From positions 96,001 through 160,000 of the IMG/VR virus record IMGVR_UViG_3300042291_000844: a DNA stretch of 64,000 bases; one strand, 5' to 3'. Within the stretch, counting starts at the first letter, position 1; each line of letters opens with the position of its first letter. The DNA comes from a virus. Taxonomy: Duplodnaviria > Caudoviricetes. Under the pieces are notes generated by a model. That model saw nothing but the letters and a program-made list of their open reading frames with translations. It was not told the origin of the DNA and did no database searches. Below, in pieces: positions 31,400 through 53,141 of the stretch. A program made the position numbers and the translations under genes.

Positions 31400-31684
31400 T
31401 TATTTTATTTGTATATATTCTGAACGTTTATACTCTTTTTTTAGTTGGTAATCCAATTTCCAATTTTTAATAATTTCTTCTGCTTGAAATTTATTTTGAA
31501 ATGGATAATCACCCGATACCCATACTTTAAAAGGCAATGTACCCATACTTGTTCTGAACCACACTTTTTGTTGTGGTTGGTACATTCGGGTTCCGTTGAC
31601 AACAAAAGTTTCTATTCTATACTTTGGTTTTGCTTCTAATGTTACCACTCCCAATAACATTAGTACTATTAATAGTTTTTTCAT
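31400..31684 (-). CDS. secreted hypothetical protein
   Basis: MKKLLIVLMLLGVVTLEA signal peptide. Confidence 0.65.
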   Translation of the reverse strand: MKKLLIVLMLLGVVTLEAKPKYRIETFVVNGTRMYQPQQKVWFRTSMGTLPFKVWVSGDYPFQNKFQAEEIIKNWKLDYQLKKEYKRSEYIQIK

Positions 31685-31692
31685 ATCAAAAG

Positions 31693-31724
31693 CTAAGATA
31701 CGAAAAAAATCTTAGAATACCTAA
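31693..31724 (-). promoter_or_regulatory. Bacteroidota-type promoter (variant)
   Basis: TTAG-N20-TATCTTAG. Confidence 0.65.
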
Positions 31725-33110: not shown

Positions 33111-33230
33111 CTAAAAAAATAATTCAGTCAAAATTATACCCAATAGAGTAAGGATTCCTCCAACTACTGCTATTGATGTGAAATTTTCTGAATCTTCAAC
33201 CTGTTGTTTTGTTTTTCCTTGATTTTCCAT
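33111..33230 (-). CDS. 39-aa membrane peptide (MENQGKTKQQVEDSENFTSIAVVGGILTLLGIILTELFF)
   Basis: Translated by hand; exactly fills uvsE-helicase gap. Confidence 0.6.
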   Translation of the reverse strand: MENQGKTKQQVEDSENFTSIAVVGGILTLLGIILTELFF

Positions 33231-33231
33231 A

Positions 33232-34125
33232 TTATTTTATAAAAGGTAATATTGCTAATTCTTTTGCTTTGGCCTCAACCATAATATCTACATTGTTACC
33301 ATATGTGTTAGGTAATGAATTAATATAAAGTGAATGGGCTTGTGGTTTTTCTTTTGGGTTATTTTCGTGTAATGCTTTTGATTCTGAGTAATGTACTACC
33401 GGGGTAATATCCTTTGGCCAAGTTGTGATTGCTAACTCTAACGCTTGTTGTTCTGATAAATCACCAGTACAAAATTGGTGGTGGTGATAATCAAAAACAA
33501 TAGGAATACCGATTGCATTATGGACATACATAAGGTCTTTAACCGAATACATAGATGTCTTGTCATCATTCTCAATTGTTAACCGCTTACGAACCGATGG
33601 GGAGAGTCTTTTGAAGTTAGTGATAAATCTATCTAATGCAGATTTTTTATCTCCGTAAACACCATTACAATGGATATTAATCTTATTATAAGGAGTTTTA
33701 GATAATCCCATCATATCGAATATCTTACCATGCAATTCTAAATCAGCAAGTGTTTTTAATACAACTGATTCGTTGGGTGAAACCAATACGTTGAATGGAC
33801 CAGGATGTGATGTAATACGCATATTATGGAATTTAGCAAAAAGACCAGCTTTTTTTAATTCCCACTTAATCTCTTTGTAATCTTTTAATTGAGTGATATC
33901 AATATGGTCGCCCCACGGGATAAGAGCAGATGATAAACGAAATAATTTAATTCCGTTCATTCTATTCCATTCTAAAATCTTAATAATATCTTTGGAGTTA
34001 AGTAGAGCTAGTTCGGAAACATAATCCATACCTTTGGCTTGGAATGTCCGGTTAACCATACTTCGGTTAGTGGTTACTTTCTTACCCATACTCATATTAA
34101 TACAAGCATATCCTAAATTCATCAT
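33232..34125 (-). CDS. uvsE: UV-damage endonuclease
   Basis: LGYACIN, FRLSS, HPGPF, IENDD, FDYHH, HYSE, EAKAKE. Confidence 0.95.
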   Translation of the reverse strand: MMNLGYACINMSMGKKVTTNRSMVNRTFQAKGMDYVSELALLNSKDIIKILEWNRMNGIKLFRLSSALIPWGDHIDITQLKDYKEIKWELKKAGLFAKFHNMRITSHPGPFNVLVSPNESVVLKTLADLELHGKIFDMMGLSKTPYNKINIHCNGVYGDKKSALDRFITNFKRLSPSVRKRLTIENDDKTSMYSVKDLMYVHNAIGIPIVFDYHHHQFCTGDLSEQQALELAITTWPKDITPVVHYSESKALHENNPKEKPQAHSLYINSLPNTYGNNVDIMVEAKAKELAILPFIK

Positions 34126-34179: not shown

Positions 34180-34578
34180 TTATTTATCATATAATTTATT
34201 TATTATATGGGTTGAGCTGAAGCCTTCCATCTTAGGGAAATATACGATTTCACCTACATATTCACTTCCTACAATTCGTTTACTCCTATATTCTTCTCCA
34301 ATAACCATAATGGCCGGTCTCATTGTTTTAAGGTGGGTTTCTAATTGTTCATCGGAATCAAATATTACAACTCTATCAACATATTTAATAGCTTCTAATA
34401 AGGTGATTCTACTTACAATATTATTTATAGGTCGTTGTTCTCCTTTTAATTCAGTAACCCTCTTATCACCATCAACCCCAACAACTAGGAAATCACCTAA
34501 TTCAGCTGCCCTCTTTAATAGTTGAATATGTCCTAAATGAACAATATCAAACGTACCATTTACCCAAACTTTTATCAT
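34180..34578 (-). CDS. nucleotidyltransferase, RfaE domain II / TagD-like cytidylyltransferase
   Basis: GTFDIVHLGH, KG..RPIN, GFSST. Confidence 0.9.
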   Translation of the reverse strand: MIKVWVNGTFDIVHLGHIQLLKRAAELGDFLVVGVDGDKRVTELKGEQRPINNIVSRITLLEAIKYVDRVVIFDSDEQLETHLKTMRPAIMVIGEEYRSKRIVGSEYVGEIVYFPKMEGFSSTHIINKLYDK

Positions 34579-34949
34579 AACAAATCATTTGGTGTTTTTC
34601 TATAAATTCGATATGAATCCGAATCAAAGTGTTCCGTACTTACCTCATATACAACTCCCTTTTCTTGTAAGGAAGTAAGTTGGTGAGGTGTTCCCTTTTC
34701 AATATAAACTGAATCACCTTCATTTAGGATTTCTTTTTTTATTATACCGATTTTGGTATCAATCCATTGGAACTCAAATCTTCCGTCTTGAATATACCAC
34801 GATTCGTTTTTAAGCATATGATAGTGCATTGAAAACTTATCACCCTTTTCTGCAAACACTAAGAGTTTGCCACAATATTGTGCATCGTTATGAACCCATA
34901 GTTCGTATCCCCACGACTTTTGTACTTTTGTTGGTCTTGTTATTATCAT
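34575..34949 (-). CDS. cupin, sugar-isomerase-like (start moved to MIITRPT)
   Basis: K.WGYE.W, SMHYH..K.ESW, H; ATGA overlap with iscA stop. Confidence 0.8.
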   Translation of the reverse strand: MIITRPTKVQKSWGYELWVHNDAQYCGKLLVFAEKGDKFSMHYHMLKNESWYIQDGRFEFQWIDTKIGIIKKEILNEGDSVYIEKGTPHQLTSLQEKGVVYEVSTEHFDSDSYRIYRKTPNDLL

Positions 34950-35269
34950 ACTGCGAAAGATTCTCCACATCCACATGTACGGGATGCATTTGGGTTTATA
35001 AATTCAAATCCCTTACCATTCAATCCATCTGAGAAATTTAATTCTGTTCCGAAAAGATATAATAATGATTTGTTGTCTACTAAAATTTTTACTCCTTTAT
35101 CTTCGGCCAGAGTATCACCTGTGTGTTGGTCGGTATCAAATGAAAGGTCATATGCTAATCCACTACATCCACCCCCCTTAACGGATACTCTGACGTAGGG
35201 AGTTTTAAATCCACTTTCTTCAATAAGTGAACTTAGTTTCTTAGCTGCTGTTTCTGATACTGTTACCAT
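34946..35269 (-). CDS. iscA: A-type Fe-S cluster carrier (HesB/IscA)
   Basis: GGGCSGL.Y and TCGCGESF. Confidence 0.95.
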   Translation of the reverse strand: MVTVSETAAKKLSSLIEESGFKTPYVRVSVKGGGCSGLAYDLSFDTDQHTGDTLAEDKGVKILVDNKSLLYLFGTELNFSDGLNGKGFEFINPNASRTCGCGESFAV

Positions 35270-36737: not shown

Positions 36738-37382
36738 TTATATTAGGGATTTTGAAAATGGAATGGTATTACTTTCATTTTTAATAAATTCTGAGTAGGG
36801 TTTCCAATCTATTCCCCTTTGAATGTATTGTAACTCTGCATTACATCTACTTTCAATATCAACATTACTTATATCTATTGTTTTAGAATAGTGTCCGGTC
36901 ATCCACCAAAAATTACCAGAGTACATTATATTTGTAGGATTACTTACTGTTTCTAATAAAACACCATAGGTATTAAACGTATTGCTATTTAAAACATTAA
37001 ATACATTATCAATATACTGAATATTGTATAATTGCATCACATTTCTCCATCGGATGGATTCGGAATCCATTTGTTTGGTTACTCCCTTTGTGTGTAGGTA
37101 AAAAATATAATCATTATTATTAAATGATTGTTTATCTTTTTCTATTAAATTTAATGTTACAAATTCATTACCCATTAATTTAATATCACCAATTATAATT
37201 TTTGAATCATATTCATAAATTAATTTGATTATATCATCTACTGAATTATTATTTTCTGATATTGAGATACCAATAGTTAATGAGTATGGTTGATTAATAT
37301 ATTTTTTTATTAATGCAAGTTGTTCATGTATTATAGATTCAACCCCCTCTATTGCATAGATGTGATAATATATCCGTATCAT
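36738..37382 (-). CDS. putative glycosyltransferase-like protein
   Basis: RIYYHI, E..TL, FYLHTKG, YSGNFWW motifs; ends KSLI. Confidence 0.55.
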   Translation of the reverse strand: MIRIYYHIYAIEGVESIIHEQLALIKKYINQPYSLTIGISISENNNSVDDIIKLIYEYDSKIIIGDIKLMGNEFVTLNLIEKDKQSFNNNDYIFYLHTKGVTKQMDSESIRWRNVMQLYNIQYIDNVFNVLNSNTFNTYGVLLETVSNPTNIMYSGNFWWMTGHYSKTIDISNVDIESRCNAELQYIQRGIDWKPYSEFIKNESNTIPFSKSLI

Positions 37383-38425
37383 ATTAAATTCGTATGGGTA
37401 GTATCAATAAATTCGTATAGGTTATGAAATAGATTTGTATTTCTACCTATCTTATTAAATTCTTTTTTAAATAATTCATGTTCTGGGTGATTAGAATCCC
37501 AAACTTGTTTTAATTTAAATTCCGCTTCAGAAAATGTTCCCCAATTAGTTATTTTACCAAAAAAAACATTTACCTTTTTGCCAAAAATAGAATACATTAT
37601 ATTATAAAAGGTTTCCATTTCCATATAGTTACTATCTTGAACAACAAACGAAGTTTTTACCCATTGTAGTGTTTTTATTGTAGAAATAAAATTTAAATTA
37701 TTTATTAAGGTATCCCATTTACCACCCAATCTTGTTTTGTTTTCATATGTATCACGTGTTCCCGCATCTATTGATATTTCGCAACTTGTTACATACTTAT
37801 GAACATTTGGCATACTATCCCACATTTCCTTTGTCCACATTGAGGCATTAGTATGTAAATGTATTCTTGTTAGTTTTGGATATTTTTTTGGATTAAAATT
37901 TTTTAAATAATTTCTAAACCCAACCGAAACGAATGGGTCACCCGTACCTGTAATATATAAAGTTTTTACGTTTGCTGAATAATGGGTATCAATTTCATCT
38001 ATTGTTTTTTCAATTCGTTCTATGCCTTTACTACTTTCAACAATTAAATCTACCCTACACGATGGACATTTATAATTACAAGTCCTATCAAAATTCATTA
38101 AAATTCTGGTCGGTGTAGTCGGTTCAACAATTGGAGTTGTATACTTTGAATTTGATTTTAATGTAATTGGACCGGATACATCTCCATATTTTAATAATCT
38201 ACTTAAATATGGACACAATTCTTTGTTACAATATTTAAACGAACCATCTAAAATAGAATTTCTAATATCTAAAATAGGTTCACTATTAAAAGCATCTTTT
38301 AATGGAATTTCATTAAGTTTAATTTCGTTTGGTAACCACGATGGACAACAAACAAAACCAACATTATTATGTATTTCTAATGATGTAAACGGAACACTAC
38401 AACTATATTGTTTTAAATCTATCAC
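37379..38425 (-). CDS. radical SAM protein with N-terminal auxiliary Cys cluster
   Basis: C..PF...CC; CNYKCPSC; GDPF; ends TNLI; GTG start. Confidence 0.9.
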   Translation of the reverse strand: MIDLKQYSCSVPFTSLEIHNNVGFVCCPSWLPNEIKLNEIPLKDAFNSEPILDIRNSILDGSFKYCNKELCPYLSRLLKYGDVSGPITLKSNSKYTTPIVEPTTPTRILMNFDRTCNYKCPSCRVDLIVESSKGIERIEKTIDEIDTHYSANVKTLYITGTGDPFVSVGFRNYLKNFNPKKYPKLTRIHLHTNASMWTKEMWDSMPNVHKYVTSCEISIDAGTRDTYENKTRLGGKWDTLINNLNFISTIKTLQWVKTSFVVQDSNYMEMETFYNIMYSIFGKKVNVFFGKITNWGTFSEAEFKLKQVWDSNHPEHELFKKEFNKIGRNTNLFHNLYEFIDTTHTNLI

Positions 38426-39078
38426 TATATCAATCCATTTATTTTTTTATCTAATCTTACTTTTTTGTAAGGCGAATTAATCCATTCATCAATACAAAAT
38501 TGATTATATTTTATCTTACAATATTCATTTAAACGTTTTATCGTTTCAATATCTTTATCAACAAATATATCTTCATAATAAAATAATGGGTATCCTTTAT
38601 TCGAGATAGATTTCAGAATCAGAGATTGGGATTCTAAATGACTAGTTAATCCTACTATATGATGTTCATCTAATTCATTTAAATCATAATACTTAGGTTT
38701 ATGCCAGTATGGAGAAACTGTTCTATTTTTTGATAATCTAATATGATAAACCAACGATTCGGCTTGTAATCGTTTATCCTTTCTTTCTAATACTATTATT
38801 TTATCAAAAAAAGAATAGAACCAATCCCAATATTCTTCTACATTTTTAAAAGATTCATATGGATAATTATCACTATCTATAAATGTTTTTAATAATACAT
38901 TTTTTTTATTTGTTATAGTATCATATGTTTTTAGTTTGTCGTCTCTATCCGGATTTATAAAATTAAATGGTTCAAAAAAAGTATTATATTTTTTGTGTTC
39001 TTTAGTTAAACAACAATTTAAATAATAAAATATTGAGGTGGAGCCACTCCTACCATTACACACAATTGCAATCCTCAT
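38425..39078 (-). CDS. sulfotransferase-like (Stf0/P-loop)
   Basis: GRSGSTS PAPS-binding loop; L.R.D...Q..S; YED; ends NGLI. Confidence 0.75.
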   Translation of the reverse strand: MRIAIVCNGRSGSTSIFYYLNCCLTKEHKKYNTFFEPFNFINPDRDDKLKTYDTITNKKNVLLKTFIDSDNYPYESFKNVEEYWDWFYSFFDKIIVLERKDKRLQAESLVYHIRLSKNRTVSPYWHKPKYYDLNELDEHHIVGLTSHLESQSLILKSISNKGYPLFYYEDIFVDKDIETIKRLNEYCKIKYNQFCIDEWINSPYKKVRLDKKINGLI

Positions 39079-39593
39079 ATAATATTAAATTTTGACTGTT
39101 TTTTTGAAAACCATATAACTAAAACATCTCTCTTACCTGATGTTACTTTTTTAATTTCATGTATATCTTTTCCACCATTAAATACAACATAATCTCCTTC
39201 ATTTTTTAACGATACGCTTTCATCATTTATATACATTTCGCCACCTGTAAAATCGGATGACAATAAAATACTGACGGTCTTGTGTGTTGTAAATCTATCT
39301 TTATGTTTTTTAGCATAACCATTTTCACCATATATTAATCTATGCATTATGTATAAATTATCAATAGGTTCTTCAAATTTATTACAAATAAATTTATTTA
39401 AATTTTTATTTTCTAAAGTATAAACCCAACTATTATCTGGAAAAAGAGAGACACCATCATCTTTTTTAAGATGTGTGGCAAAATATAATTGAGGATGGGA
39501 TGCTTTTATATATGCTAAATCATCTTCATTCATTATTCGGGTAGTATCTAATTCAGATTTTAAAAAACCTAAATCATCGATTGATAGTTTCAT
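39075..39593 (-). CDS. 2OG-Fe(II) oxygenase
   Basis: H.D (KHKD), GGE, HE+..V..G.R; ends FNII. Confidence 0.85.
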   Translation of the reverse strand: MKLSIDDLGFLKSELDTTRIMNEDDLAYIKASHPQLYFATHLKKDDGVSLFPDNSWVYTLENKNLNKFICNKFEEPIDNLYIMHRLIYGENGYAKKHKDRFTTHKTVSILLSSDFTGGEMYINDESVSLKNEGDYVVFNGGKDIHEIKKVTSGKRDVLVIWFSKKQSKFNII

Positions 39594-40222
39594 ATGATTT
39601 TATTTATTTTATTCTTAAATTCTACAATTGGTTCATCTACATTTAAAAATTTATGTAATTTAATATAAAAATCATAACAACCTCGTGCACCAGGATGCCA
39701 ATCTATTACATCGCCACCTTCATCTGCAATAGAAGTTACTTTTATTAATTCTACAAACTTTTTTGTTTTTTCATAAAAATCATCGTTCCAGGTCACAAAA
39801 ATTGGTTCATATTTTTTATAAAAATATTTTAATTTTTTAATAAATAATATTTCAGAATCCCTATCCCCATTATACCAATGTTCAGTTTCTTTGACCCTTA
39901 GTTCTAATAGTTTTTTAGCAAACGATTTATCACTATACCATTCCCAATTTAAATATTTTAAGTTGTGATTTGTATCTCTTTCCCCAAAATATCTTCGTGG
40001 GAATCTACCGGGTGCAGTAAAGACTATAACTAATCTATCACCTTCTACATAATTTGGTATATTTCCAGTTTGATATAATATAGAATTATTATCAGACCCA
40101 AATTTTCCCAATTTAATAATATTATAATGATTAGATAAATAGTCTGTCCAGTGTGTTTCTGGTAAATCCCAATCTACAAAACTATCACCACAAATGTATA
40201 TGTTATTTTTTTTGGTTAACAT
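39590..40222 (-). CDS. SGNH/GDSL-like hydrolase or acyltransferase
   Basis: GDSF block I, N, DWHP block V; ends NKII. Confidence 0.7.
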   Translation of the reverse strand: MLTKKNNIYICGDSFVDWDLPETHWTDYLSNHYNIIKLGKFGSDNNSILYQTGNIPNYVEGDRLVIVFTAPGRFPRRYFGERDTNHNLKYLNWEWYSDKSFAKKLLELRVKETEHWYNGDRDSEILFIKKLKYFYKKYEPIFVTWNDDFYEKTKKFVELIKVTSIADEGGDVIDWHPGARGCYDFYIKLHKFLNVDEPIVEFKNKINKII

Positions 40223-40788
40223 TATATAATAGTTTTATTTGATTTTAATTTAGGATAATCAAAATCAGTTTCTGTCATCCAAATATTTAATGCGTACCTT
40301 ATCCCGTTGGTTACCGGTAAAACCCCATGGTATGTATCAGACCCATTAAATGAAATACTATCACCTAATTTTAAATCACACAATGTCAGACCAGTTAGTG
40401 TTTCAAAATCATAAGGAGGATTCACATCTTCAGTTAAAGCAAATTGTCCACCGATAAAATTATCAGAAAGAACAATTACTGTAGTTAATTCGCTTGATTT
40501 ATCCTTATGTAGATTAAGATATCTACCATCATAATATGAAGTTAGACTGATATTAAAATTCTTTAAATTAAATGATAGGTAATCAAACCATAATTTAAAG
40601 TTTCCGTTTTTATAATTATCGGTTAATAAATTAATTATTCTTTTTTTAAATTCTTCATCATACATTCTTCTACAATCCCAATGTTCGGTTGAACTATATG
40701 AAAAGGGTTCACCAAATTTAAGACAAAAATTAATTATATCGTTGGCGGTTTCTCTATTACAAAAATTATTATTTATGGTATAATTCAT
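40222..40788 (-). CDS. 2OG-Fe(II) oxygenase
   Basis: LHKD, GGQF, HGV.PV..G.RY; ends KTII. Confidence 0.85.
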   Translation of the reverse strand: MNYTINNNFCNRETANDIINFCLKFGEPFSYSSTEHWDCRRMYDEEFKKRIINLLTDNYKNGNFKLWFDYLSFNLKNFNISLTSYYDGRYLNLHKDKSSELTTVIVLSDNFIGGQFALTEDVNPPYDFETLTGLTLCDLKLGDSISFNGSDTYHGVLPVTNGIRYALNIWMTETDFDYPKLKSNKTII

Positions 40789-41606
40789 AATAGATGTGAT
40801 TTTTTTGGTTTATTATATACTAATAAATTGCCGTTATTTATAAATTTATATAATTCATCGGCAATTAATTTATATCCATTATTGCTTGGATGTTTACCTG
40901 CTGTAGTACTTATCCAATTATTACCATCCTCCCATACATCTTTTCTATTAGTATCAATTAATAAGTTTGCCATTGTTTTATTTTGATAACCCCAATATTT
41001 ATCACTCTCTATTAAATCGGTTTTATCAACTAACTTATGGATATTTCTATTAATCATTATATCAAACGCGTCACAAAAAAGATATCTGATTCCTAATTCT
41101 TTAAATATAAATTGAAGATGTAAAATATAGTTTTGATTCACTATATCATAGTAAGTATCATTGAATAAATTACCTATGTAATAATCTCTAAAATTTTTCT
41201 CCGCCCTATTATAGTTTATATTATCACTATTAACTCCATCAAAAATATATTTTAAAAGGTGTTCTTTACTTTTATATCGTTTGCCCCAAATAAAAAAATC
41301 ATCTTCAGTAGGGAAAAAAGGTAATGAATCCCGTAAAGATGATGACCACATAATAACAACAAAATCATCTTGAGTGATGATTTCGTTTTTTAATTGATAC
41401 GATACTGCGTTAAATATTGCATTATTTGAAAATGCCCCAACTCCATTATTTTTAACTTCACATTTTAATAGTTCTGATAAGTGTTTAGGCCAACAATATT
41501 TTTGTCTTATTAGTGTTCTTTGTTCAAAATCATCCGTACTATATTCATCTTCAACATTTCCACCAACCCCCTCAGTCCAACTATCTCCAAATGTAAACAA
41601 TTTCAT
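40785..41606 (-). CDS. SGNH/GDSL-like hydrolase or acyltransferase
   Basis: GDSWTEG, SN..I, HPS..GY..IA; ends SHLL. Confidence 0.75.
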   Translation of the reverse strand: MKLFTFGDSWTEGVGGNVEDEYSTDDFEQRTLIRQKYCWPKHLSELLKCEVKNNGVGAFSNNAIFNAVSYQLKNEIITQDDFVVIMWSSSLRDSLPFFPTEDDFFIWGKRYKSKEHLLKYIFDGVNSDNINYNRAEKNFRDYYIGNLFNDTYYDIVNQNYILHLQFIFKELGIRYLFCDAFDIMINRNIHKLVDKTDLIESDKYWGYQNKTMANLLIDTNRKDVWEDGNNWISTTAGKHPSNNGYKLIADELYKFINNGNLLVYNKPKKSHLL

Positions 41607-41617
41607 AATGCATAATA

Positions 41618-41761
41618 TTAAAGATGTGTTTCTTTAATTTTAGCTACAAGTTCTTGAAATGCAGTTGATATTTTTGTTTTTACAACGGTCGATAATGGAG
41701 CAATAACTGTCTTAATAACTGTTAATGGTCTTTCTTCTCTAATTTTTGGTGTCTTTGCCAT
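41618..41761 (-). CDS. 47-aa basic peptide (MAKTPKIREERPLTVIKTVIAPLSTVVKTKISTAFQELVAKIKETHL)
   Basis: Translated by hand; directly downstream of the ATP-grasp-Hint gene. Confidence 0.6.
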   Translation of the reverse strand: MAKTPKIREERPLTVIKTVIAPLSTVVKTKISTAFQELVAKIKETHL

Positions 41762-41796
41762 AATATTTTTTTATTTTAATTTAAATTATATACTAA

Positions 41797-43287
41797 TTAT
41801 AGTTTGGGTGGTGGTATTCCCTGGTCACAGGTTGGACAAAAAGGAGCACAACCATACCCACCACAATAATAAGAACCACAACCCCAACAACTATTATGCA
41901 TTACACTAAATATTCCATCTCCAATATCCACTAAGAATAAATCGCCGGGTGCAAAATCTAATGAATATATTGTTTTGTATTCAAACACCATTTCTAAATT
42001 TGTAATTGTAATTGTTGTTAATTCATTTGTATTTATATCAGTTACAACTAATTTATCTCCAACATATAAACTATTTACTTTTTCAAATCTAGTTGCGGTT
42101 GAATCTTTTTCTTCAATATAATATGTACATCCAGGTGCATCTGTCCAAGTTTTACCATCTTCTAATGTTATTTTTATCATAATCACTTCTGCCGATTGCG
42201 ATACCATACCTATTAATTCAGATTGTAATGATGTTAATGTATCATTTGATTGTTGTAACGTACTATCCCAACCATATGTCACAATTTCATTTGTAAAAGA
42301 TTTAGCTTCATTTTCATTTGAATCTACAAAATTTATAGAACGAATATAATCGCCTAATTGTATGGTGGTAACATTTGTTAATGTACCATCGTAGTTTAAG
42401 ATATTTGAATCATCATCGGTATGATAATCACTCTCAGTTTTACCTATTTCTTTTGTAATATATTTATATCTTGTTTTTTGATTTAATTTTTTGGTGCCAG
42501 TAACAAATTCATCAGCGGTAAACGAAATCGGTATTATTGAAGATTGTGTGTATCCACCCATATTAATAATATCTAAATTTGAACCATATATAATATCAAT
42601 TCCTCTTATAATTGAGTATCTACCGTCTACCAAATTATCTTCTGAAAATATAAATTCTTGAATTAAATAATTACTTTCAGCTGAGTTTATTGTATCATTT
42701 AATTCAGTATTATTTGAAACTGTATATAATGCGGGGTATTGTGTTCCATCATATTGGGGATAACGATACTTTATTAATAGGTTTGGATTTGTAGTAGTGG
42801 TATAATCTACTTCATCTAATGTATTTAAATTTAACGTATCAGATGTATACTTTGTTTTTGGAATATACTCTGAATCTTTCATTAAATTAAAAAATTCAAA
42901 TTTATCAGCACAATACGTTTCATCTACTAATGCAGTTGTATCAAATGCTTGTCTTAAAATAAATTTAGTATCAGTATCTTCTATAAATGGTACAGTAACC
43001 GAACCCGCTGGTACAATATGGCCAGTATACGTTATATTATTTTCTGCACATTTTTCTTGTAATATTTGTAGAAATCTATGTGGTTGATTTAATGGTTTGA
43101 ACGCATCACCTTCCGTCCATATATAATGGAACTCAGTAATATTATTAGCATTTAACATATCAAATAACGTAGTGTAATCTAATAAATCAGCACCCTCATT
43201 ATAAATTGTGGTATTTGTATTTATTTCTAAAAACTTAACCGAACCATTTTTTTGTAGATAATCACTACCAATTATTGTTGCTTTCAT
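41797..43287 (-). CDS. permuted ATP-grasp-like domain + Hint domain + C-terminal six-Cys peptide
   Basis: N-terminal D...FLEINTN then DK, PKT, K, LIQEFI; Hint blocks (ILNYDG...IQLGD; VNSLYVGD; IYSLDF...MHN); tail SCWGCGSYYCGGYGCAPFCPTCDQGIPPPKL. Confidence 0.7.
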   Translation of the reverse strand: MKATIIGSDYLQKNGSVKFLEINTNTTIYNEGADLLDYTTLFDMLNANNITEFHYIWTEGDAFKPLNQPHRFLQILQEKCAENNITYTGHIVPAGSVTVPFIEDTDTKFILRQAFDTTALVDETYCADKFEFFNLMKDSEYIPKTKYTSDTLNLNTLDEVDYTTTTNPNLLIKYRYPQYDGTQYPALYTVSNNTELNDTINSAESNYLIQEFIFSEDNLVDGRYSIIRGIDIIYGSNLDIINMGGYTQSSIIPISFTADEFVTGTKKLNQKTRYKYITKEIGKTESDYHTDDDSNILNYDGTLTNVTTIQLGDYIRSINFVDSNENEAKSFTNEIVTYGWDSTLQQSNDTLTSLQSELIGMVSQSAEVIMIKITLEDGKTWTDAPGCTYYIEEKDSTATRFEKVNSLYVGDKLVVTDINTNELTTITITNLEMVFEYKTIYSLDFAPGDLFLVDIGDGIFSVMHNSCWGCGSYYCGGYGCAPFCPTCDQGIPPPKL

Positions 43288-43347
43288 AAATGTTTATTTT
43301 TTTCTGGATGTACCTATAAATATATTAAAATTGAATTTAAGACCATT

Positions 43348-43650
43348 TTAAATAATACTAGGATTTTTTTTAATTTCAAGTGGTTCTAAATAATTAGAAT
43401 CAACTTCATTCCATTTTTTTAATCCACATGCATTATAAGTTGTTGAAAATACTTTTTTATTCAATGGACACCCACATTCACCACAATACGCACTCCATTT
43501 TAATCCTTTTATTACTTCTTTTCTATAATCACACCCTAAACAAACATCAAGTCTTAATTTAGCTAATTCCTCTTGTTTTGGTGTGGGGTTTAAAGAAATT
43601 TTCCAAGCATCAAATATTTCTTTATAATTAATTATAGGTTTAGGTATCAT
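43348..43650 (-). CDS. small Zn-binding protein, DUF6171-like
   Basis: RL.VC..C...C..CGC...K...C...KW; ends PSII. Confidence 0.7.
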   Translation of the reverse strand: MIPKPIINYKEIFDAWKISLNPTPKQEELAKLRLDVCLGCDYRKEVIKGLKWSAYCGECGCPLNKKVFSTTYNACGLKKWNEVDSNYLEPLEIKKNPSII

Positions 43651-43651
43651 A

Positions 43652-44389
43652 TTATATTAATGTTTTATTATTTTTTTGAATATCGTAATAATCATAAATA
43701 TCATTATATTTTTTGATGAAATCATCATTCATTTTTAAATTACAATCAAAATGTTGACTTCCATTTAAGTTTTCCATTTTAAATGGTTTATCTGTTTTAT
43801 TAGATACCCATTCCTCTAATTCTGTAAAATTTCCAAATTCAAACCATTTTATTTTTGGGTTATTATTATGCCAAAATGATATTGGCCTGAATAATATTAA
43901 TAACATATTTTCCAGATAATCGTCCAAATACTTTTGAATTCCATTTCTTTTTGCAAATTCTTTAATTACTAAAATTTGAGAAGTTAGTGATATTAAATCT
44001 AAATCTTTAAAAAATAATATATCATCCATATTTAATTTTTTTAGTATATTTACTAATTCGTTTGGATATTTTAGATGTTCCATTTCGACCATATCAATTA
44101 TATGTTTCCATAATGAAATAAATCGTTCATATCTATTTCGTTTAATTGTTATGATATCATACTCATTCCCAAATTTTAATAGTAATAAATCTAATCTTTC
44201 GTGAAGATGTACCATATTATCTGCGAGCGATTCATTACTCAAAGTTAAATTAATGGGTATATGGTAATTATCTACAAATGATTGGTCAAAATGTTCAATT
44301 TTAAATCCACTTCTTAAACATGATATATAAAATGAAGTGGATGCACATCTTGGTAATGATATAAATAAAAATTTATTCTCTACTAACAC
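43652..44389 (-). CDS. sulfotransferase-like protein
   Basis: FISLPRCASTS PAPS loop; RN.YERFIS.W; ends KTLI. Confidence 0.75.
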   Translation of the reverse strand: MLVENKFLFISLPRCASTSFYISCLRSGFKIEHFDQSFVDNYHIPINLTLSNESLADNMVHLHERLDLLLLKFGNEYDIITIKRNRYERFISLWKHIIDMVEMEHLKYPNELVNILKKLNMDDILFFKDLDLISLTSQILVIKEFAKRNGIQKYLDDYLENMLLILFRPISFWHNNNPKIKWFEFGNFTELEEWVSNKTDKPFKMENLNGSQHFDCNLKMNDDFIKKYNDIYDYYDIQKNNKTLI

Positions 44390-45027
44390 TATATTAACGA
44401 TTTTTGGTTTTTAATAAAATCAAATCCAACATTACCTGCCATAACAATTCTATCTAAGGTTGATTCCGATGCACTATGTGGTGAATGGGGCATATCTGCC
44501 TCCATTATAATTAAATCATCTTCTTCCGGCATTATCCAATATTCCGTATTATCTTTTCCTTTAAAACATAATACCCCATCATCACCATTCATTACATCTG
44601 GCATTTGAATATAATAAACGTATGTATAATGTGGAATAAAGTCTTTATTTTTTTTATTAATTTCAGTATGTATATGATATTTTTCATCATTATAAAACTC
44701 TTCTTGTACTGGATTTTTAGAACGAACAACGTTGACCCAAGCATCTGTATTAATCTTATTATAATTTATACCGGTTTCATTATAAATTTCTTTACATTTA
44801 TTAATACCAATTTGAATTATTTCATCTAATTTTGTTTCTACCTTAATATCACCAATAAAATTTAAATGTTCATTCCATTCTTTTTTATAACCAAACCCAT
44901 CAGTTTTAACATTAGGCTGGGATTCTATAATAGAATATGCCTCTTTTAAAAACAATTGTTTATCACTTATTCGATTTAATTTTACTTTCCAAATATAAGT
45001 TGTCTCATCAAAAAATATCTTTTCCAT
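44389..45027 (-). CDS. putative 2OG-Fe(II) oxygenase (TIGR02466-like)
   Basis: AWVN, H.H, YVYY+.MP, H, R+V.AGN; ends KSLI. Confidence 0.75.
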   Translation of the reverse strand: MEKIFFDETTYIWKVKLNRISDKQLFLKEAYSIIESQPNVKTDGFGYKKEWNEHLNFIGDIKVETKLDEIIQIGINKCKEIYNETGINYNKINTDAWVNVVRSKNPVQEEFYNDEKYHIHTEINKKNKDFIPHYTYVYYIQMPDVMNGDDGVLCFKGKDNTEYWIMPEEDDLIIMEADMPHSPHSASESTLDRIVMAGNVGFDFIKNQKSLI

Positions 45028-45033
45028 AATTTT

Positions 45034-45639
45034 TTATATTAAAGTAGTTTGGGTTTTAAGGTATTTTTTATTTATATCTAAAAAATAAAAATTAGAACAA
45101 AACACAATCCGTTCAGTATTTGAGTTTATATTAGTTTCTGCACGATGTAACAAATTTGCATCAAATATTAATAAATCACCTACGTTTGGTAAGATTGAAA
45201 ATTCTTCGCCATTTTCATCTTTAAATATTAAATGTCCTTCTTTGTCATTTAAATTATTTGGCATTTTACTATAATAAGTTAATGTATAATCTGGTGTTTG
45301 TTTTATAAAACTTGTTGATATTTTTGAATTATGTCTATGAAAACCGGAATAACTATTATTATTTTTACTAATAAAAATCCATTCATTTGTATTATAAAAA
45401 AATGGTTTGTTAACTAAGTAAAACATAGAGTCTATGATATTCTGTCTAACAATATTTATATTTTTAGAATTTACTTGCACATACGATTGTATACCAGGTG
45501 TTTCTGGGGTTGGGTGACTTACATTCTGACTAATTTCAATAGAATACCATAATTCTTTTGATAATTGTTCATTATCTATTCCTTCTATGCGTTTTCTATA
45601 TATAATTATATTTTCACCTAATTTTATTTCCTCTAACAT
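45034..45639 (-). CDS. putative 2OG-Fe(II) oxygenase (TIGR02466-like)
   Basis: FH.H, TYY..MP, GDLLIF...L.H, RI...N; ends TTLI. Confidence 0.75.
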   Translation of the reverse strand: MLEEIKLGENIIIYRKRIEGIDNEQLSKELWYSIEISQNVSHPTPETPGIQSYVQVNSKNINIVRQNIIDSMFYLVNKPFFYNTNEWIFISKNNNSYSGFHRHNSKISTSFIKQTPDYTLTYYSKMPNNLNDKEGHLIFKDENGEEFSILPNVGDLLIFDANLLHRAETNINSNTERIVFCSNFYFLDINKKYLKTQTTLI

Positions 45640-45645
45640 ATTATA

Positions 45646-46281
45646 TTAATTTAGTTTTTTATAAAATATATCAGCTAATTCTTTATGACCTACTTCAGAA
45701 AAATGGGCATCGTTAATTACGCCATTAGTTTCATCTTGTAATCTATTTAATAAAGTTCCCACATACCAATCTGTTGGTAGTAATTGTTTTTTAAGATGAA
45801 CATCAGTACATAAAGCAAAGGGTGACCAAAAAATAACTTTAATGCCTTTTAATTTAAATATAGTACTAAGTAATTTAGACCAATTAACTATTTCATCCCA
45901 ATATAACCTACTCATTCTATTAATCCGAATTTGCTCTAATGTATTGATATCGATAAATTTATACGATTCTAACTCTGAAACTGAATTTCTGATAGTACTC
46001 CATTTATTATTTTTTTCTAACCTAAAACGAGATGGTTCTGTCCAACCTATAATAACAATATCTCTAGTATTGATAGAATCTATGTTAGTAATGATAGACT
46101 CAAAGATAGTATTATTATCAACACCCCCATTACCACATTGGTTAACTTCCATATCTAGCATTGTAGATAGGTAGTGAGAAAATATTTTTGGTTGATATCC
46201 TTTGTATTCTTTATATTTAATACCCAATCCATACATCTTTTCCCATGTTGTAGAAAACGAATCACCAAATACCCAAATCAT
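45646..46281 (-). CDS. SGNH/GDSL-like hydrolase or acyltransferase
   Basis: VFGDSFS, DN.TI, D.HFS..GH..LA. Confidence 0.75.
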   Translation of the reverse strand: MIWVFGDSFSTTWEKMYGLGIKYKEYKGYQPKIFSHYLSTMLDMEVNQCGNGGVDNNTIFESIITNIDSINTRDIVIIGWTEPSRFRLEKNNKWSTIRNSVSELESYKFIDINTLEQIRINRMSRLYWDEIVNWSKLLSTIFKLKGIKVIFWSPFALCTDVHLKKQLLPTDWYVGTLLNRLQDETNGVINDAHFSEVGHKELADIFYKKLN

Positions 46282-46841
46282 AAAAGATTTTGTTTTGTTG
46301 AATTTGTTTTAACTAATGACACCCAATTTACTAATGAATACCTAATCCCATTCACTACTGGCGTTACTCTATGCAGTAATCTTGAATTAAAAATATATAA
46401 TGTCCCAATTTTATTTTCTATTGGTACAATCTCACCTTTAATGTTTTTTATTTCTAATAGACCGCCTTCGTATGCATTGTTTAACTGAATTACTATTGAT
46501 GTAAATCTATTTCTATATATGGTACCAGTACTATCGGTATGCCAATCAAAGTACTCACCTTCTTTATACTCAGTAAATTGAAATGGTCCAAGTCCCGTAA
46601 CTTCCATACCATTTATATTAAAGGTTTTTCTTAATTTATTTGTTAATCTGTCATTTAAAAATTCTAAATTAGATATCCAGCCAATCGATGATTTTCTATT
46701 TGTTTTATTATGTGGAGTATTAGAATCATCACCATATACTTTAGCATCTGATAATGATAATTCATTTTTACATTTGTTTAAAAGCAACTCACACTCTTCG
46801 GGTGATAGGAAATTTTCAAATATGTCTATATTGTCAATCAT
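46278..46841 (-). CDS. 2OG-Fe(II) oxygenase, prolyl-hydroxylase-like (start moved to MIDNIDIF)
   Basis: WHTD, YEGG.L, LHRVTPV..G.RYS; ends QNLL. Confidence 0.9.
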   Translation of the reverse strand: MIDNIDIFENFLSPEECELLLNKCKNELSLSDAKVYGDDSNTPHNKTNRKSSIGWISNLEFLNDRLTNKLRKTFNINGMEVTGLGPFQFTEYKEGEYFDWHTDSTGTIYRNRFTSIVIQLNNAYEGGLLEIKNIKGEIVPIENKIGTLYIFNSRLLHRVTPVVNGIRYSLVNWVSLVKTNSTKQNLL

Positions 46842-46862
46842 ATATATAAATATATAAATAAT

Positions 46863-46894
46863 AAAAAAAAGGGTCACCGAAATTGATGACCCTT
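46863..46894 (-). terminator. intrinsic terminator after hsp20
   Basis: AAGGGTCA/TGACCCTT stem plus T-tract. Confidence 0.75.
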
Positions 46895-46913: not shown

Positions 46914-47294
46914 TTATCCAATTTTGATTTGAACTTTCTTTGGTTTTGCTTCATCGTATTTGTCAGTTGTAATGATTAATAAACCATTATCAAATTTAGC
47001 TTCCGATTTAGTTCCATCATAATCCTTACCAAGTGTAAAAGTTAAATCAATATCCGTAACTAATGAAGAACTGGTTTCTTCTTTTTTTGATTTAATTAGC
47101 ATCTGAGTTTCAGTAACTTCCAATTTAATGTTCTTTGGATTGTGGCCCAATACATTTAGAGTTAATTGATACTTCCCATCTTCCAATACCTTACCCTCAT
47201 ATCTATTGAAAGATGAATAGGTTGATGTAGAATTCCAAGTTGGTAATTCGGATTCAAATAAATCCAATAAGTTTGTAATGTTTGCTGTGTACAT
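46914..47294 (-). CDS. small heat-shock protein (Hsp20/alpha-crystallin)
   Basis: Y.L..NV.G..PKNI.L, A.FDNGLL.I, V.I C-terminal motif. Confidence 0.9.
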   Translation of the reverse strand: MYTANITNLLDLFESELPTWNSTSTYSSFNRYEGKVLEDGKYQLTLNVLGHNPKNIKLEVTETQMLIKSKKEETSSSLVTDIDLTFTLGKDYDGTKSEAKFDNGLLIITTDKYDEAKPKKVQIKIG

Positions 47295-47358
47295 AATTTT
47301 TTTATTTTAGTTAAACAATACCTTTAATATTACAATTGTTATACCAAAGGGTACTTTA

Positions 47359-47402
47359 TGACATATTGTCAGTATTTTAAAATCTTATTTGACAACTTGT
47401 CA
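47359..47402. promoter_or_regulatory. two TGACA-N3-TGTCA palindromes upstream of hsp20 (candidate operators)
   Basis: TGACATATTGTCA at 47359-47371 and TGACAACTTGTCA at 47390-47402. Confidence 0.55.
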
Positions 47403-47403
47403 G

Positions 47404-48063
47404 TTAGAAAGGTTTAGTATCTTCCCATTGTTTGTTCTCCTGTCTACAACTCATATGGTCAGCCCAATGTAGAATGTATGGTAGGTCGGTTTTTAACCTC
47501 ATCTCGGGACGGAAACTGATAAAGTAAGGTTTAGTACCTTCGTTGTATAATCCGTCTGCTAACATAATCCCAATCATCTCCTTTTCGGAATAGGTAATAC
47601 CATATTGGTTAAGTAACCACAACGCCCTATGTGTTACATCCATATAATGATTCTCTCCATTAATCTTAAACAATGCACCTTGGTTCTTTTTATGCCAATC
47701 AGACCCCTCCTCTACATAATGAGGTTGACCCTTCACTCCTAACTTACCCAAATCATGATGGAAGGCTGCGAAGAATAATTCCTCATCGGTAAAATCTACT
47801 TTGATTCCACCCTCCTCATAAATCTTTTTCATCTTATACGCGTTTCGGGCAACGTTCATCACGTGGTCTAAATATCCACCAACATAAGCAGAGTGATAAT
47901 GTTCTTTACTACTTGCAGGGGCCAGAACTAATTCAGTTCCTAATTCCTCTTGTGAATACATGAACTTTAATTTCTCTAAACGTTCACCACTAAATACTTT
48001 ACTCAATGCCTCAATGAATTTATCATAATTCTTTTGTAGGTCTTCTGCTGAATAGTTTTTCAT
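47404..48063 (-). CDS. HD-domain phosphohydrolase
   Basis: H.H.AY.GGYLDH, FHHDLGK, HWAD. Confidence 0.85.
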   Translation of the reverse strand: MKNYSAEDLQKNYDKFIEALSKVFSGERLEKLKFMYSQEELGTELVLAPASSKEHYHSAYVGGYLDHVMNVARNAYKMKKIYEEGGIKVDFTDEELFFAAFHHDLGKLGVKGQPHYVEEGSDWHKKNQGALFKINGENHYMDVTHRALWLLNQYGITYSEKEMIGIMLADGLYNEGTKPYFISFRPEMRLKTDLPYILHWADHMSCRQENKQWEDTKPF

Positions 48064-48073
48064 AATTTATATT

Positions 48074-48421
48074 TTAATCTTCAATTTCTTGTCCTGTTAA
48101 TGCCCTATATAGAATTTCTAATTGTTCTTCACTCTCACAATATCCCAACCCAACCGCATCTCCAATTTCAACTATATAACTTCCCTTTGGTAATTCCATA
48201 TGTTTCCATTCATCGTTTATAGATGATATTAAACAAGGTGCATCTTCGGATGGATTATCCTTCGGTAGTGGTAATACATAATAGTACATTCCACTTGGAG
48301 CAGATTCTTCATCATCACCCTCTTCTGCCATTTCATCTACCTTTTCCCATCCCTGTCTTTCAAATGTATCTTCAGTTATAGGTGTTTCTGGAAATTCTAT
48401 TGGGGTTTCTTCTATACTCAT
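48074..48421 (-). CDS. acidic hypothetical protein
   Basis: 115 aa ORF in operon. Confidence 0.6.
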   Translation of the reverse strand: MSIEETPIEFPETPITEDTFERQGWEKVDEMAEEGDDEESAPSGMYYYVLPLPKDNPSEDAPCLISSINDEWKHMELPKGSYIVEIGDAVGLGYCESEEQLEILYRALTGQEIED

Positions 48422-49023
48422 TCTAAAACTATTTTAGTATATAAAATTATTTTTGATTCATAATGATATGTTTTTAATACTAATGTATCACCAATCATAT
48501 TACCGGTTGGTGATATTATTGTATTTATTTCACCTGTCCTATCATCACTATAAGATGCTGGATTTGTGGTTGGAACTAATGCAGTTACATTTGATATTAA
48601 TGCTGGTAAATTTACAATAGTATATTGACCTGTAAAATAGTTTATATATGATTTTGTTATTGTTGCAATTGTATCACCTTTATTAAGATGCCAATACAAA
48701 TTACTTTCCCATTCTATTTTTTCTACTGGTTTATTTGGTATTTTACCATTTAATAAAATTCTACCGGTAACTCTATATGATTGTTGCTGAGGATTTGGTA
48801 TTAATTTTATATGATAGTAACCTTTTGTATCCTTTGCAACTGAACGTAATCCATCTCTTGTTAATACAGAATCTATTGATATTGTGTATTTATTAACTAT
48901 TATTGGTGTGGTATTTGTTTTTGTTTGAACCTCTGGCCCCCATTGTGAAATAGGAGTGGGTATATCATCTTTACTGCAAGCAGTAAATAGTAAAGAACTT
49001 AATACTAACCATTTGATTCTCAT
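48418..49023 (-). CDS. lipoprotein (start moved to MRIKWL)
   Basis: Lipobox LFTAC followed by SKDD. Confidence 0.7.
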   Translation of the reverse strand: MRIKWLVLSSLLFTACSKDDIPTPISQWGPEVQTKTNTTPIIVNKYTISIDSVLTRDGLRSVAKDTKGYYHIKLIPNPQQQSYRVTGRILLNGKIPNKPVEKIEWESNLYWHLNKGDTIATITKSYINYFTGQYTIVNLPALISNVTALVPTTNPASYSDDRTGEINTIISPTGNMIGDTLVLKTYHYESKIILYTKIVLE

Positions 49024-49505
49024 AACAATTTGTTTAAGATTGATTCCCAAGTCGGATATTCATTCCATTCCTTTGTTTCATATGCCCAACCAAATTTAAG
49101 TAACTCACCTTTGAACTCTCCGGCCCCATTCTTAATTCGGTCATCAATTAGGTAATCACCTGTCAATAAGTCTTTTCGGTGGGTAACCATCATTTTTTTA
49201 TGAAAGAGATTTCCAAAGTGGTACTCAATCCAATATCGTTTGTCAGTTGAAGCATCAGGGTTTCCCCACGGTGCTGCGGTTGCGATGAACATTTCATACT
49301 TTCCACTCTCGGCCAATTTCTTAACAGCCTCAATTGCTCCTTCGTATGGAGGTGGGTTTCTGAATATACCAGGAATATGGTCAGGACATTTTTTGTATTT
49401 ATCAACTAAGTGTGGGTGGAGTTCAAACCACTTATCAAACTCGGCTTTTAAATCTACTAAAACGCCATCCATGTCTATGTAAAGAATCTTTTTGTTGTTG
49501 TTCAT
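49020..49505 (-). CDS. 5'(3')-deoxyribonucleotidase (NT5C-like HAD)
   Basis: YIDMDGVL, TAAPW, LIDD. Confidence 0.9.
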   Translation of the reverse strand: MNNNKKILYIDMDGVLVDLKAEFDKWFELHPHLVDKYKKCPDHIPGIFRNPPPYEGAIEAVKKLAESGKYEMFIATAAPWGNPDASTDKRYWIEYHFGNLFHKKMMVTHRKDLLTGDYLIDDRIKNGAGEFKGELLKFGWAYETKEWNEYPTWESILNKLL

Positions 49506-52781: not shown

Positions 52782-53141
52782 TTAAATTAATTTTCTTACC
52801 TCTTTTTTTTTCTGAATAGGTTTTCTTGTATTTTGGATGTCTTCTTTATATTTGACTATCTTTGCACATATTTCATATTCTTCCTTTTCTTGAAACCAAT
52901 TTTTACAATGGTCTAATGCTTCAATAAAATCACTCTTAGGTACGATTGAAATTGCACTAGCATTTGGATGAACTAATATAGCAACTTCACTCAATCCTTT
53001 TTTTGCTGCCCTATAAATATTTGTTGAAACTTGATTCATCACTTCGAACCCACGTTTTTCTAAAAAACGAGCAACCCTTATATTGTTATTAGGGTCTAAA
53101 TATTTTTTCCAATCAAGTGTAGTAAAAGTTCTGCTTTTCAT
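52782..53141 (-). CDS. hypothetical protein with UVR-like E.YE.CA motif
   Basis: EKEEYEICAKI. Confidence 0.55.
   Translation of the reverse strand: MKSRTFTTLDWKKYLDPNNNIRVARFLEKRGFEVMNQVSTNIYRAAKKGLSEVAILVHPNASAISIVPKSDFIEALDHCKNWFQEKEEYEICAKIVKYKEDIQNTRKPIQKKKEVRKLI

Follow-up and report, generated by a model that had tools for sequence, protein, structure and literature searches.

A strictly C-terminal motif on the enzymes of a giant-phage gene cluster, possibly a docking tag for a peptide-modification system

In one gene cluster of a tailed phage (Caudoviricetes), enzymes of unrelated families share a short C-terminal motif, typically Lys-Ser/Thr-Leu-Ile. The DNA under study is a stretch of 64,000 nucleotides (IMG/VR record IMGVR_UViG_3300042291_000844, positions 96,001 to 160,000 of that record), called the window throughout, in which 15 tightly packed minus-strand open reading frames (ORFs) at 36738-46877 form a cluster around the gene for a 496-amino-acid (aa) ATP-grasp-Hint protein, referred to as the central protein. 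Comparison with related phages demonstrates that the motif, called the tag below, exists, is selected at the protein level and is strictly terminal; from its distribution we infer that it docks the enzymes that carry it, with the central protein as the best candidate partner.

Results

The tag in the window and in related phages

A first-pass annotation of the window had listed twelve C-termini in the cluster (KSLI, TNLI, NGLI, FNII, NKII, KTII, SHLL, PSII, KTLI, KSLI, TTLI and QNLL), and all twelve read as it gave them. With the tag defined in the window as an [LI][LI] C-terminus, the recount again gave 12 of the 13 proteins of at least 100 aa that flank the ATP-grasp-Hint gene (12/14 cluster ORFs), the exception at 45646-46281 ending in KKLN. 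Elsewhere in the window, where about five such ends had been counted, the tag is indeed rare, as 4 of the 63 other ORFs of at least 50 aa (those at 26964, 34575, 49020 and 52782) end this way (cluster versus other ORFs, Fisher p = 4e-9). The codons of the tag vary, as had been noted, with CTA, TTA, TTG and CTT in use alongside ATA, ATT and ATC. Likewise, the four carriers said not to overlap the next start do not: 36738 ends the operon, and 43348, 43652 and 45034 are followed by a 60-nucleotide (nt) gap, a single nucleotide and a 6-nt spacer, respectively.

Eighty related IMG/VR loci with the central gene (57-84% identity) were recovered on contigs of up to 316 kb; the phages are uncultured giant phages of lakes and sea, with genomes of 238-316 kb. 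ORFs were called in all 80 loci, duplicates were removed, and the genes contiguous with the central gene were taken as the cluster. Counting a [LIVM][LIVM] C-terminus as the tag in these loci, 509 of 530 non-redundant cluster genes are tagged compared with 66 of 605 flanking genes (p = 5e-214), and the borders of the cluster are sharp across loci. The cluster proteins form 33 families that are unrelated by BLAST; in 30 of them, half or more of the members carry the tag, and the untagged families are mainly small membrane proteins. Among the 21 untagged cluster proteins, eight end in close variants of the tag (KSFI, KSLF, NKIF and LKFL) and seven are small membrane proteins. These data uphold that part of the first-pass annotation which proposed a shared, undescribed signal, and a literature search returned no description of the tag or of the layout of the central protein; between docking, packaging and degradation, which the annotation had offered together as its role, the distribution of the tag did not itself decide.

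Across the loci, the motif is longer than its two aliphatic residues, and its full form is K-x-x-K-[ST]-L-I-COOH. Counted by position, Lys stands at -7 in 50% and at -4 in 54% of cases, Thr or Ser at -3 in 58%, Leu at -2 in 78% and Ile at -1 in 71%, and an aromatic residue is frequent around -11. Besides Thr and Ser, position -3 is taken by Lys (16%) and Asn (10%), and 6 of the 12 tags in the window have Thr or Ser there. Cluster proteins end in the string K[ST]L[IL] in 157 cases, whereas inside a sequence it turns up just 8 times, and extra residues never come after it; because it is so strictly terminal, the free carboxylate looks to be part of the signal. Furthermore, the Pfam domain of the 2-oxoglutarate (2OG) oxygenases stops 10-17 residues before the C-terminus, so the tag sits on an added extension.

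Selection at the protein level

The first-pass annotation had argued for selection on the protein and had named AT-rich stop/start coupling as the alternative. When genes were sorted by the junction with the next gene, the tag was found on 94% of cluster genes without overlap, 96% of those at TAATG and 98% of those at ATGA junctions, whereas the corresponding values for flanking genes of the same genomes were 8%, 17% and 16%; the equal frequency at other ATGA and TAATG junctions of related genomes, on which the coupling alternative turns, was thus not found, and the argument for the protein holds. The tag is also present on 50 of 53 cluster genes that lie more than 60 nt from the next gene and on all 23 that have no downstream gene. 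Leu codons at -2 are used at background frequency (TTA 0.67 against 0.63 in the gene interior, TTG 0.16 against 0.14, CTA 0.12 against 0.10), and substitutions within the tag are conservative (LM, VI, LF and FI).

That the ending is a by-product of nucleotide selection, either through AT-rich start/stop coupling or through an A/U-rich landing site for ribosomes, might be suspected from the many ATGA or TAATG junctions and from the last codon, where ATA makes up 78% of Ile codons compared with a background of 46%. The over-use of ATA is explained in part by ATGA overlaps, which force a final A, but the motif is not thereby created. A by-product of this kind is extremely improbable, given that the same junctions in flanking genes are tagged in only 16-17% of cases, that 94-100% of cluster genes are tagged when the next gene is distant or absent, that codon use at -2 equals the background, that A/U-only codons cannot give the preference for Thr or Ser at -3, and that relocated genes (described below) retain the tag. 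Taken together, its independence of overlap and gene distance, the background Leu codons and its retention by relocated genes strongly support the tag as a protein-level signal and not an artefact of AT-rich junctions.

Tagged genes outside the cluster and in distant contexts

A position weight matrix (PWM) over the last 8 residues, trained on the other loci, was used to score C-termini, and its ranks 1-10 in the window are all cluster genes. In a complete relative of 288.7 kb (G003; loci L083-L084), all nine high scorers fall within 31.6-54.4 kb. The top PWM score in this genome belongs to the homologue of the 119-aa protein of the window (...KSKKTLI), which is encoded outside the cluster proper. 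A tagged B12-binding radical S-adenosylmethionine (SAM) enzyme of 609 aa, also among the nine, is encoded at 31643-33472, about 13 kb upstream of the cluster, and a tagged tryptophan halogenase of 413 aa, of a family absent from the window, at 47112-48353. In the same genome, a homologue of the window's SGNH-like protein, 210 kb from the cluster, keeps the ending ...NKLI with a weaker PWM score, and at L104 an untagged homologue of the 119-aa protein is encoded two genes upstream of the central gene, beside a Zn100-like gene. The label thus travels with the protein and not with the operon, and it can serve as a sequence handle by which all members of the pathway in a genome are found, including those far from the cluster.

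The arrangement of the cluster itself also varies. In three loci (L064, L074 and L075, at about 7-18 kb of each), the tagged cluster as a whole lies in the opposite orientation to the conserved phage backbone (HD, Hsp20, membrane protein and UvdE genes), which shows that it moves as one block. At about 45637 in the window, contigs of related phages from two other runs match to exactly that gene boundary and then diverge fully, which suggests that whole genes are swapped at the junctions between cluster genes.

When grouped by identity, the central-protein family gives 579 clusters at 90% and 325 representatives at 50%. The tag is still present in distant contexts, where the central proteins are 21-33% identical to that of the window. 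At L098, twelve contiguous genes have the ending, mostly as KK[ST]L[IL], and at L100, L101, L102, L104 and L107 tagged 2OG oxygenase, methyltransferase, SET-domain and small Cys-rich proteins are encoded; SET-domain, methyltransferase and glycosyltransferase-like proteins are the families that these contexts add, and the adjoining sugar-nucleotide enzymes are untagged. A tagged Cys-rich protein of 88-108 aa beside the central gene recurs in most of the distant contexts (L098, L100, L102, L104 and L107). The central protein is tagged in 0 of 79 cases. These data show that the tag is confined to this system and is always found alongside the central protein.

Gene content of the cluster

The features of the cluster, together with one tagged gene outside it, are collected in Table 1.

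Table 1. Genes of the tagged cluster and an outlying tagged gene in the window
Feature	Coordinates	Strand	C-terminus	Remarks
214-aa protein, no family match	36738..37382	-	...SKSLI	last operon gene; homologues in 4 loci all end LI; PWM score 9.8
Radical SAM enzyme	37379..38425	-	...HTNLI	Pfam PF04055 E 3.4e-6; 19/24 homologues tagged, rest LM or IE
217-aa P-loop, sulfotransferase-like protein (ST1)	38425..39078	-	...INGLI	48/48 homologues tagged
2OG-Fe(II) oxygenase	39075..39593	-	...KFNII	Pfam PF13640; domain stops 10 residues short of C-terminus
210-aa protein, no family match	39590..40222	-	...INKII	
2OG-Fe(II) oxygenase	40222..40788	-	...SNKTII	Pfam PF13640; 56/59 homologues tagged, rest VI
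SGNH/GDSL-like hydrolase (SGNH273)	40785..41606	-	...KKSHLL	weak Pfam GDSL/DUF6071; 44/49 homologues tagged
47-aa ORF, conserved, untagged	41618..41761	-	...KETHL	directly after ATP-grasp-Hint gene
Central protein (GRASP), untagged	41797..43287	-		ATP-grasp 1-282 (apparently permuted), Hint ~286-467, 31-aa tail (six Cys, one Lys)
100-aa Cys-rich (zinc-finger-like) protein	43348..43650	-	...KNPSII	always directly upstream of central gene; 62/71 homologues tagged, rest LM or VI
Sulfotransferase-family protein (ST2), 245 aa	43652..44389	-	...KNNKTLI	78/78 homologues tagged; tail consensus IYDYYDlPK..KTLI
2OG-Fe(II) oxygenase	44389..45027	-	...KNQKSLI	Pfam PF13640; highest PWM score in window
2OG-Fe(II) oxygenase	45034..45639	-	...TQTTLI	Pfam PF13759
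211-aa SGNH-like protein, only untagged enzyme	45646..46281	-	...YKKLN	12/19 homologues tagged
2OG-Fe(II) oxygenase, prolyl-hydroxylase type	46278..46877	-	...TKQNLL	Pfam PF13640 E 7.6e-14; 89/91 homologues tagged
119-aa protein outside cluster	52782..53141	-	...EVRKLI	good tag; PWM rank 11 in window

The first-pass annotation had assigned the carriers to several unrelated folds. Pfam confirms this for the five 2OG oxygenases and, with a match slightly below the curated cut-off, for the radical SAM enzyme; the SGNH assignment is weak, the sulfotransferase assignment of ST2 comes from an ESM Atlas feature search (0.96, to viral Sulfotransfer_2 clusters), and DUF6171 is only a lead for the 100-aa Cys-rich protein, for which there is one PHROG match of unassigned function. 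Searches of Pfam, PHROGs and PDB sequences returned no match for the central protein, ST1, ST2, the 214-aa, 210-aa and 119-aa proteins or the 47-aa peptide, and the GenBank phage collection contained neither a near nor a protein-level match to the window.

The one untagged enzyme, at 45646-46281, ends in YKKLN in its own frame; in the -1 frame after a run of six A (within 45641-45670), the reading is KKTKLI followed by a stop, a perfect tag, and the usual TTAATATAATATG junction is kept. The same six-A state without an insertion or deletion is found in contigs from other lake-water runs, so it is not an error of one assembly. The site may represent a fixed loss of one base, or it may be read by slippage.

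Two further proteins in the window, a 5'-nucleotidase-like protein (49020-49505, minus strand) and a cupin (34575-34976, minus strand), end in LL, as do all of their homologues that were found, and have low scores with the tag matrix; theirs is probably an unrelated conserved ending. Beside the gene for the tagged 119-aa protein, a 308-aa protein (53191-54117, minus strand) has a low-complexity tail rich in Pro, Tyr and Gly (PPEPPSPPYTPSNY...), which is a possible additional substrate for oxygenases of the prolyl-hydroxylase type and for tyrosine sulfotransferases.

The central protein and its companions

The ligase-Hint part of the central protein comprises 465 residues. An AlphaFold2 model built from an alignment of 109 sequences reached a mean pLDDT of 90.3, compared with 47 from an alignment of 32 sequences. 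Residues 1-282 have an ATP-grasp fold: VIA-align matched them to YgiC (Z 10.1, 201 residues aligned), GspS (9.2) and eukaryotic glutathione synthetases (8.4-8.7), and at a lower level (Z 6-6.5) to TTLL, ArgX and RimK (6.2-6.4 for ArgX-LysW and RimK). The YgiC, GspS and glutathione synthetase relatives are ligases that bind and act on the carboxylate of a peptide or an acid. The position of an E-x-N motif at the N-terminus is consistent with a circularly permuted domain. Among the 109 sequences (20-88% identity), E21, N23, R112, D122 and R228 are invariant and K173 is nearly so; roles in binding Mg and ATP are suggested for these residues by the motif LEINTN rather than by structural superposition.

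Residues 286-467 have a Hint fold, with a Foldseek E-value of 4e-8 to Hedgehog autoprocessing and BIL domains and VIA-align Z scores of 14-16. The residues H464 and N465 show no variation in the alignment of 32 sequences, and at least 90% of the 109 sequences retain them. Intein position 1, where a Cys, Ser or Thr nucleophile is required, aligns to residue 289, an invariant His; because the C-terminal His-Asn is nevertheless kept, only C-terminal cleavage is expected of this domain. The tail that follows the His-Asn is hypervariable. Each of its 55 distinct versions contains six Cys and a single Lys, never more or fewer. This Lys stands in the penultimate position in 44 versions, and Asp and Glu are both absent from 29. 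In the Cys-rich peptide, the conserved Trp and Tyr would suit the role of modification sites, which fits the presence of the tagged B12-binding radical SAM enzyme and the tagged tryptophan halogenase in G003.

In the window's protein and in relatives (P0121-P0270), the peptide after the His-Asn is hypervariable, Cys-rich and 20-80 aa long. A second Hint domain, which starts CF.AGT, follows the peptide, or directly follows the His-Asn, in at least 20 distant representatives among the matches listed. A peptide between two Hint domains would be bracketed by self-cleaving domains, and such a layout might give rise to a thioester and to a cyclic product.

The untagged 47-aa ORF is rich in Lys, Thr and Ser, and tblastn places a counterpart at the same site in most related loci, where its end is ...K-x-K-H-L in most cases. 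Most of the distant contexts likewise have an ORF of 43-50 aa immediately behind the ATP-grasp-Hint gene (ending KHL at L102 and KHM at L107). The peptide could be a subunit of the ligase or a second substrate.

The fold of the central protein bears on the possibility that the tag is a handle for covalent ligation, in which the ATP-grasp domain would activate the tagged C-terminal carboxylate and join it to the Lys of the Cys-rich peptide or to an alpha-amine freed by the Hint domain. GspS, glutathione synthetase and YgiC, and after them RimK, ArgX/LysX and TTLL, are carboxylate-activating ligases, several of which act on the C-terminus of a peptide or protein. In LysW/LysX, RimK and tubulin-tyrosine ligase, an ATP-grasp ligase acts on a C-terminal protein tail, and LysW is itself a small zinc-finger protein; however, the tails of LysW and RimK are acidic (EDWGE and EE), whereas the tail here is basic and aliphatic and occurs on a dozen enzymes, and ligation here is hypothetical. 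The invariance of catalytic-type residues, including the E-x-N motif, and the strictly terminal position of the tag also agree with ligation, as does the single Lys in all 55 tails, 29 of which, lacking Asp and Glu, often leave it without an internal carboxylate partner. Such a reaction would nevertheless be stoichiometric, with one 496-aa protein spent per ligation, no reason is known why a dozen catalysts should have a peptide tethered to them, and the ligase could equally well act on the two ends of the peptide itself, joining its C-terminal carboxylate to its N-terminal amine (head-to-tail cyclisation). For these reasons, ligation is considered unlikely, and it is similarly doubtful that the tag is what a protein-ligation system recognises, one that would resemble ubiquitin in effect but not in mechanism and would append to defined proteins a variable peptide module delivered in cis by Hint cleavage.

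Discussion

The tag may be best understood as a means of docking, by which interchangeable tailoring enzymes are brought to the central precursor/ligase, a reading that is held with moderate confidence. Placed on a short flexible extension and requiring a free C-terminus, the tag would mark the enzymes of a single system by which the phage modifies a peptide, among them oxygenases, sulfotransferases, radical SAM enzymes and hydrolases and, in relatives, halogenases and methyltransferases. Docking would be transient and non-covalent, with every enzyme binding a shared partner by which the substrate is presented; for this partner the untagged central protein, perhaps together with the 47-aa peptide, is the best candidate, and the central protein would release its hypervariable six-Cys tail through C-terminal Hint cleavage. 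Any fold could then join the pathway by acquiring the tag, so that the usual logic of a leader peptide would be reversed. A recruitment signal fits better than a degron or a packaging signal because all soluble enzymes of the pathway, and almost only they, are tagged, whatever their fold or location, together with one central protein; the central protein would be the natural partner because it carries the presumed substrate peptide and an N-terminal domain of a carboxylate-binding fold class. The assembly of the enzymes on one scaffold, which the first-pass annotation had proposed, is likewise drawn from this distribution.

Several observations weigh against docking on the central protein. The tag might instead be read by a protein of the host or by a different phage protein. 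Complex prediction with residues 1-469 of the central protein (109 alignment rows) and the last 32 residues of ST2 (42 rows) scored 0.08 against a mark of 0.32 and, being run without controls, speaks neither for nor against an interaction. The 100-aa Cys-rich protein that accompanies the central gene is itself tagged, so there is no simple division into enzymes and scaffold. Half of the tags in the window have no Ser or Thr at -3, and the core signal may be little beyond a Lys and a pair of aliphatic residues, something that a chaperone or protease might equally read. Finally, the ATP-grasp domain is structurally nearest to catalysts rather than to passive receptors, and its residues of catalytic type do not vary, so a covalent role is conceivable.

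In five related phage records, of which two are complete genomes, searches with PDZ_2, PDZ_6, Peptidase_S41 and a single TPR model, TPR_8, gave no hit over the cut-off. With no classical C-terminus reader encoded by the phage in the PDZ, TPR and S41 searches, there is room for a host reader, and the tag could be a degradation or chaperone signal for a host machine (ClpXP, Lon, FtsH or another) that limits the lifetime of the enzymes or controls their folding; a basic and then aliphatic C-terminus loosely resembles bacterial C-terminal degrons such as the LAA of ssrA and the RRKKAI of MuA. A general host degron, however, should not mark the complete enzyme set of one pathway and hardly anything else, in 30 families and over very deep divergence, nor would it be expected to track one phage protein, and other enzymes of the same phage genomes are untagged, which together make this explanation improbable. 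The adjoining small heat-shock protein, considered as a reader, was rejected: it belongs to the conserved phage backbone and not to the cluster, and the groove of small heat-shock proteins binds I-x-I motifs, which the tag does not fit. The Tyr-ending proteins downstream of some clusters are tail-fibre-like and unrelated.

C-terminal address labels on unrelated enzymes are known in eukaryotes, where they include the type 1 peroxisomal targeting signal (PTS1), PDZ ligands and the tripeptide of cytosolic iron-sulfur assembly (CIA). PTS1 (SKL-COOH, read by the TPR domain of PEX5) resembles the tag in being strictly C-terminal, in its length of 3-4 residues, in its basic character and aliphatic end, in its presence on unrelated enzymes and in its free carboxylate. 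The tag nevertheless departs from the [SAC]-[KRH]-[LM] consensus, as it ends in [ST]-L-I with the basic residue at -4 and not at -2, and its setting is a phage, with no TPR_8 match in the five records and no known compartment. Cargo peptides of microcompartments and encapsulins are also short terminal peptides common to several enzymes of a pathway; they are, however, amphipathic helices of 10-20 residues or GSL-type motifs that are not necessarily terminal and that come with a shell gene, neither of which is seen here. That the tag is an address of the PTS1 or encapsulation-peptide kind, directing enzymes to a compartment or to the virion, might suit the large genomes of these giant phages (238-316 kb). 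Even so, no shell or receptor gene was recognised in the clusters, in which no dedicated shell search was run, and the radical SAM and 2OG enzymes depend on cofactors of the cytoplasm, so that packaging into the virion would have no obvious use; in view of this and of the absent TPR_8 match, we regard an address as quite improbable.

The class I PDZ motif (x-[ST]-x-hydrophobic-COOH) implies a free C-terminus and fits 58% of the tags when all loci are counted and 6 of the 12 in the window, and its hydrophobic last residue is matched, as 96% of the 530 cluster proteins end in [LIVM][LIVM]. The conserved Lys residues at -4 and -7 nevertheless lie outside the PDZ rule, and the five phage records gave no PDZ_2 or PDZ_6 match over the cut-off, although a divergent PDZ domain or one of the host may act as reader. 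Bacterial PDZ proteins are mostly periplasmic. The CIA tripeptide ([LIM]-[DES]-[WF]-COOH, on eukaryotic cytosolic Fe-S proteins) likewise brings clients of unrelated folds to one machine, but the tag has no acidic or aromatic preference at -2 and -1, and the tagged set includes metal-free enzymes (sulfotransferases, SGNH hydrolases and methyltransferases). A further parallel in organisation is with the leader peptides and recognition elements (RRE) of peptides that are made by the ribosome and then modified after translation (RiPPs), where many tailoring enzymes find one ribosomal precursor and where a hypervariable core and interchangeable enzymes are also found; the polarity here is reversed, in that the element is on the enzymes, the 'leader' would be a 465-residue ligase-Hint protein and no RRE domains were seen.

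In the papers searched, no such label is described for a set of biosynthetic enzymes in bacteria or phages, and none is otherwise known to us, and here one is found on at least 30 enzyme families across deeply diverged giant-phage clusters. If the tag does serve in docking, it would amount to a plug-and-play rule by which any catalyst can be recruited to a peptide substrate, and it would explain the rapid swapping of enzymes among these clusters. It would also be of use in engineering, as about 12 appended residues would bring an enzyme to a chosen scaffold. Furthermore, what product these phages make from the hypervariable Cys-rich peptide becomes a testable question.

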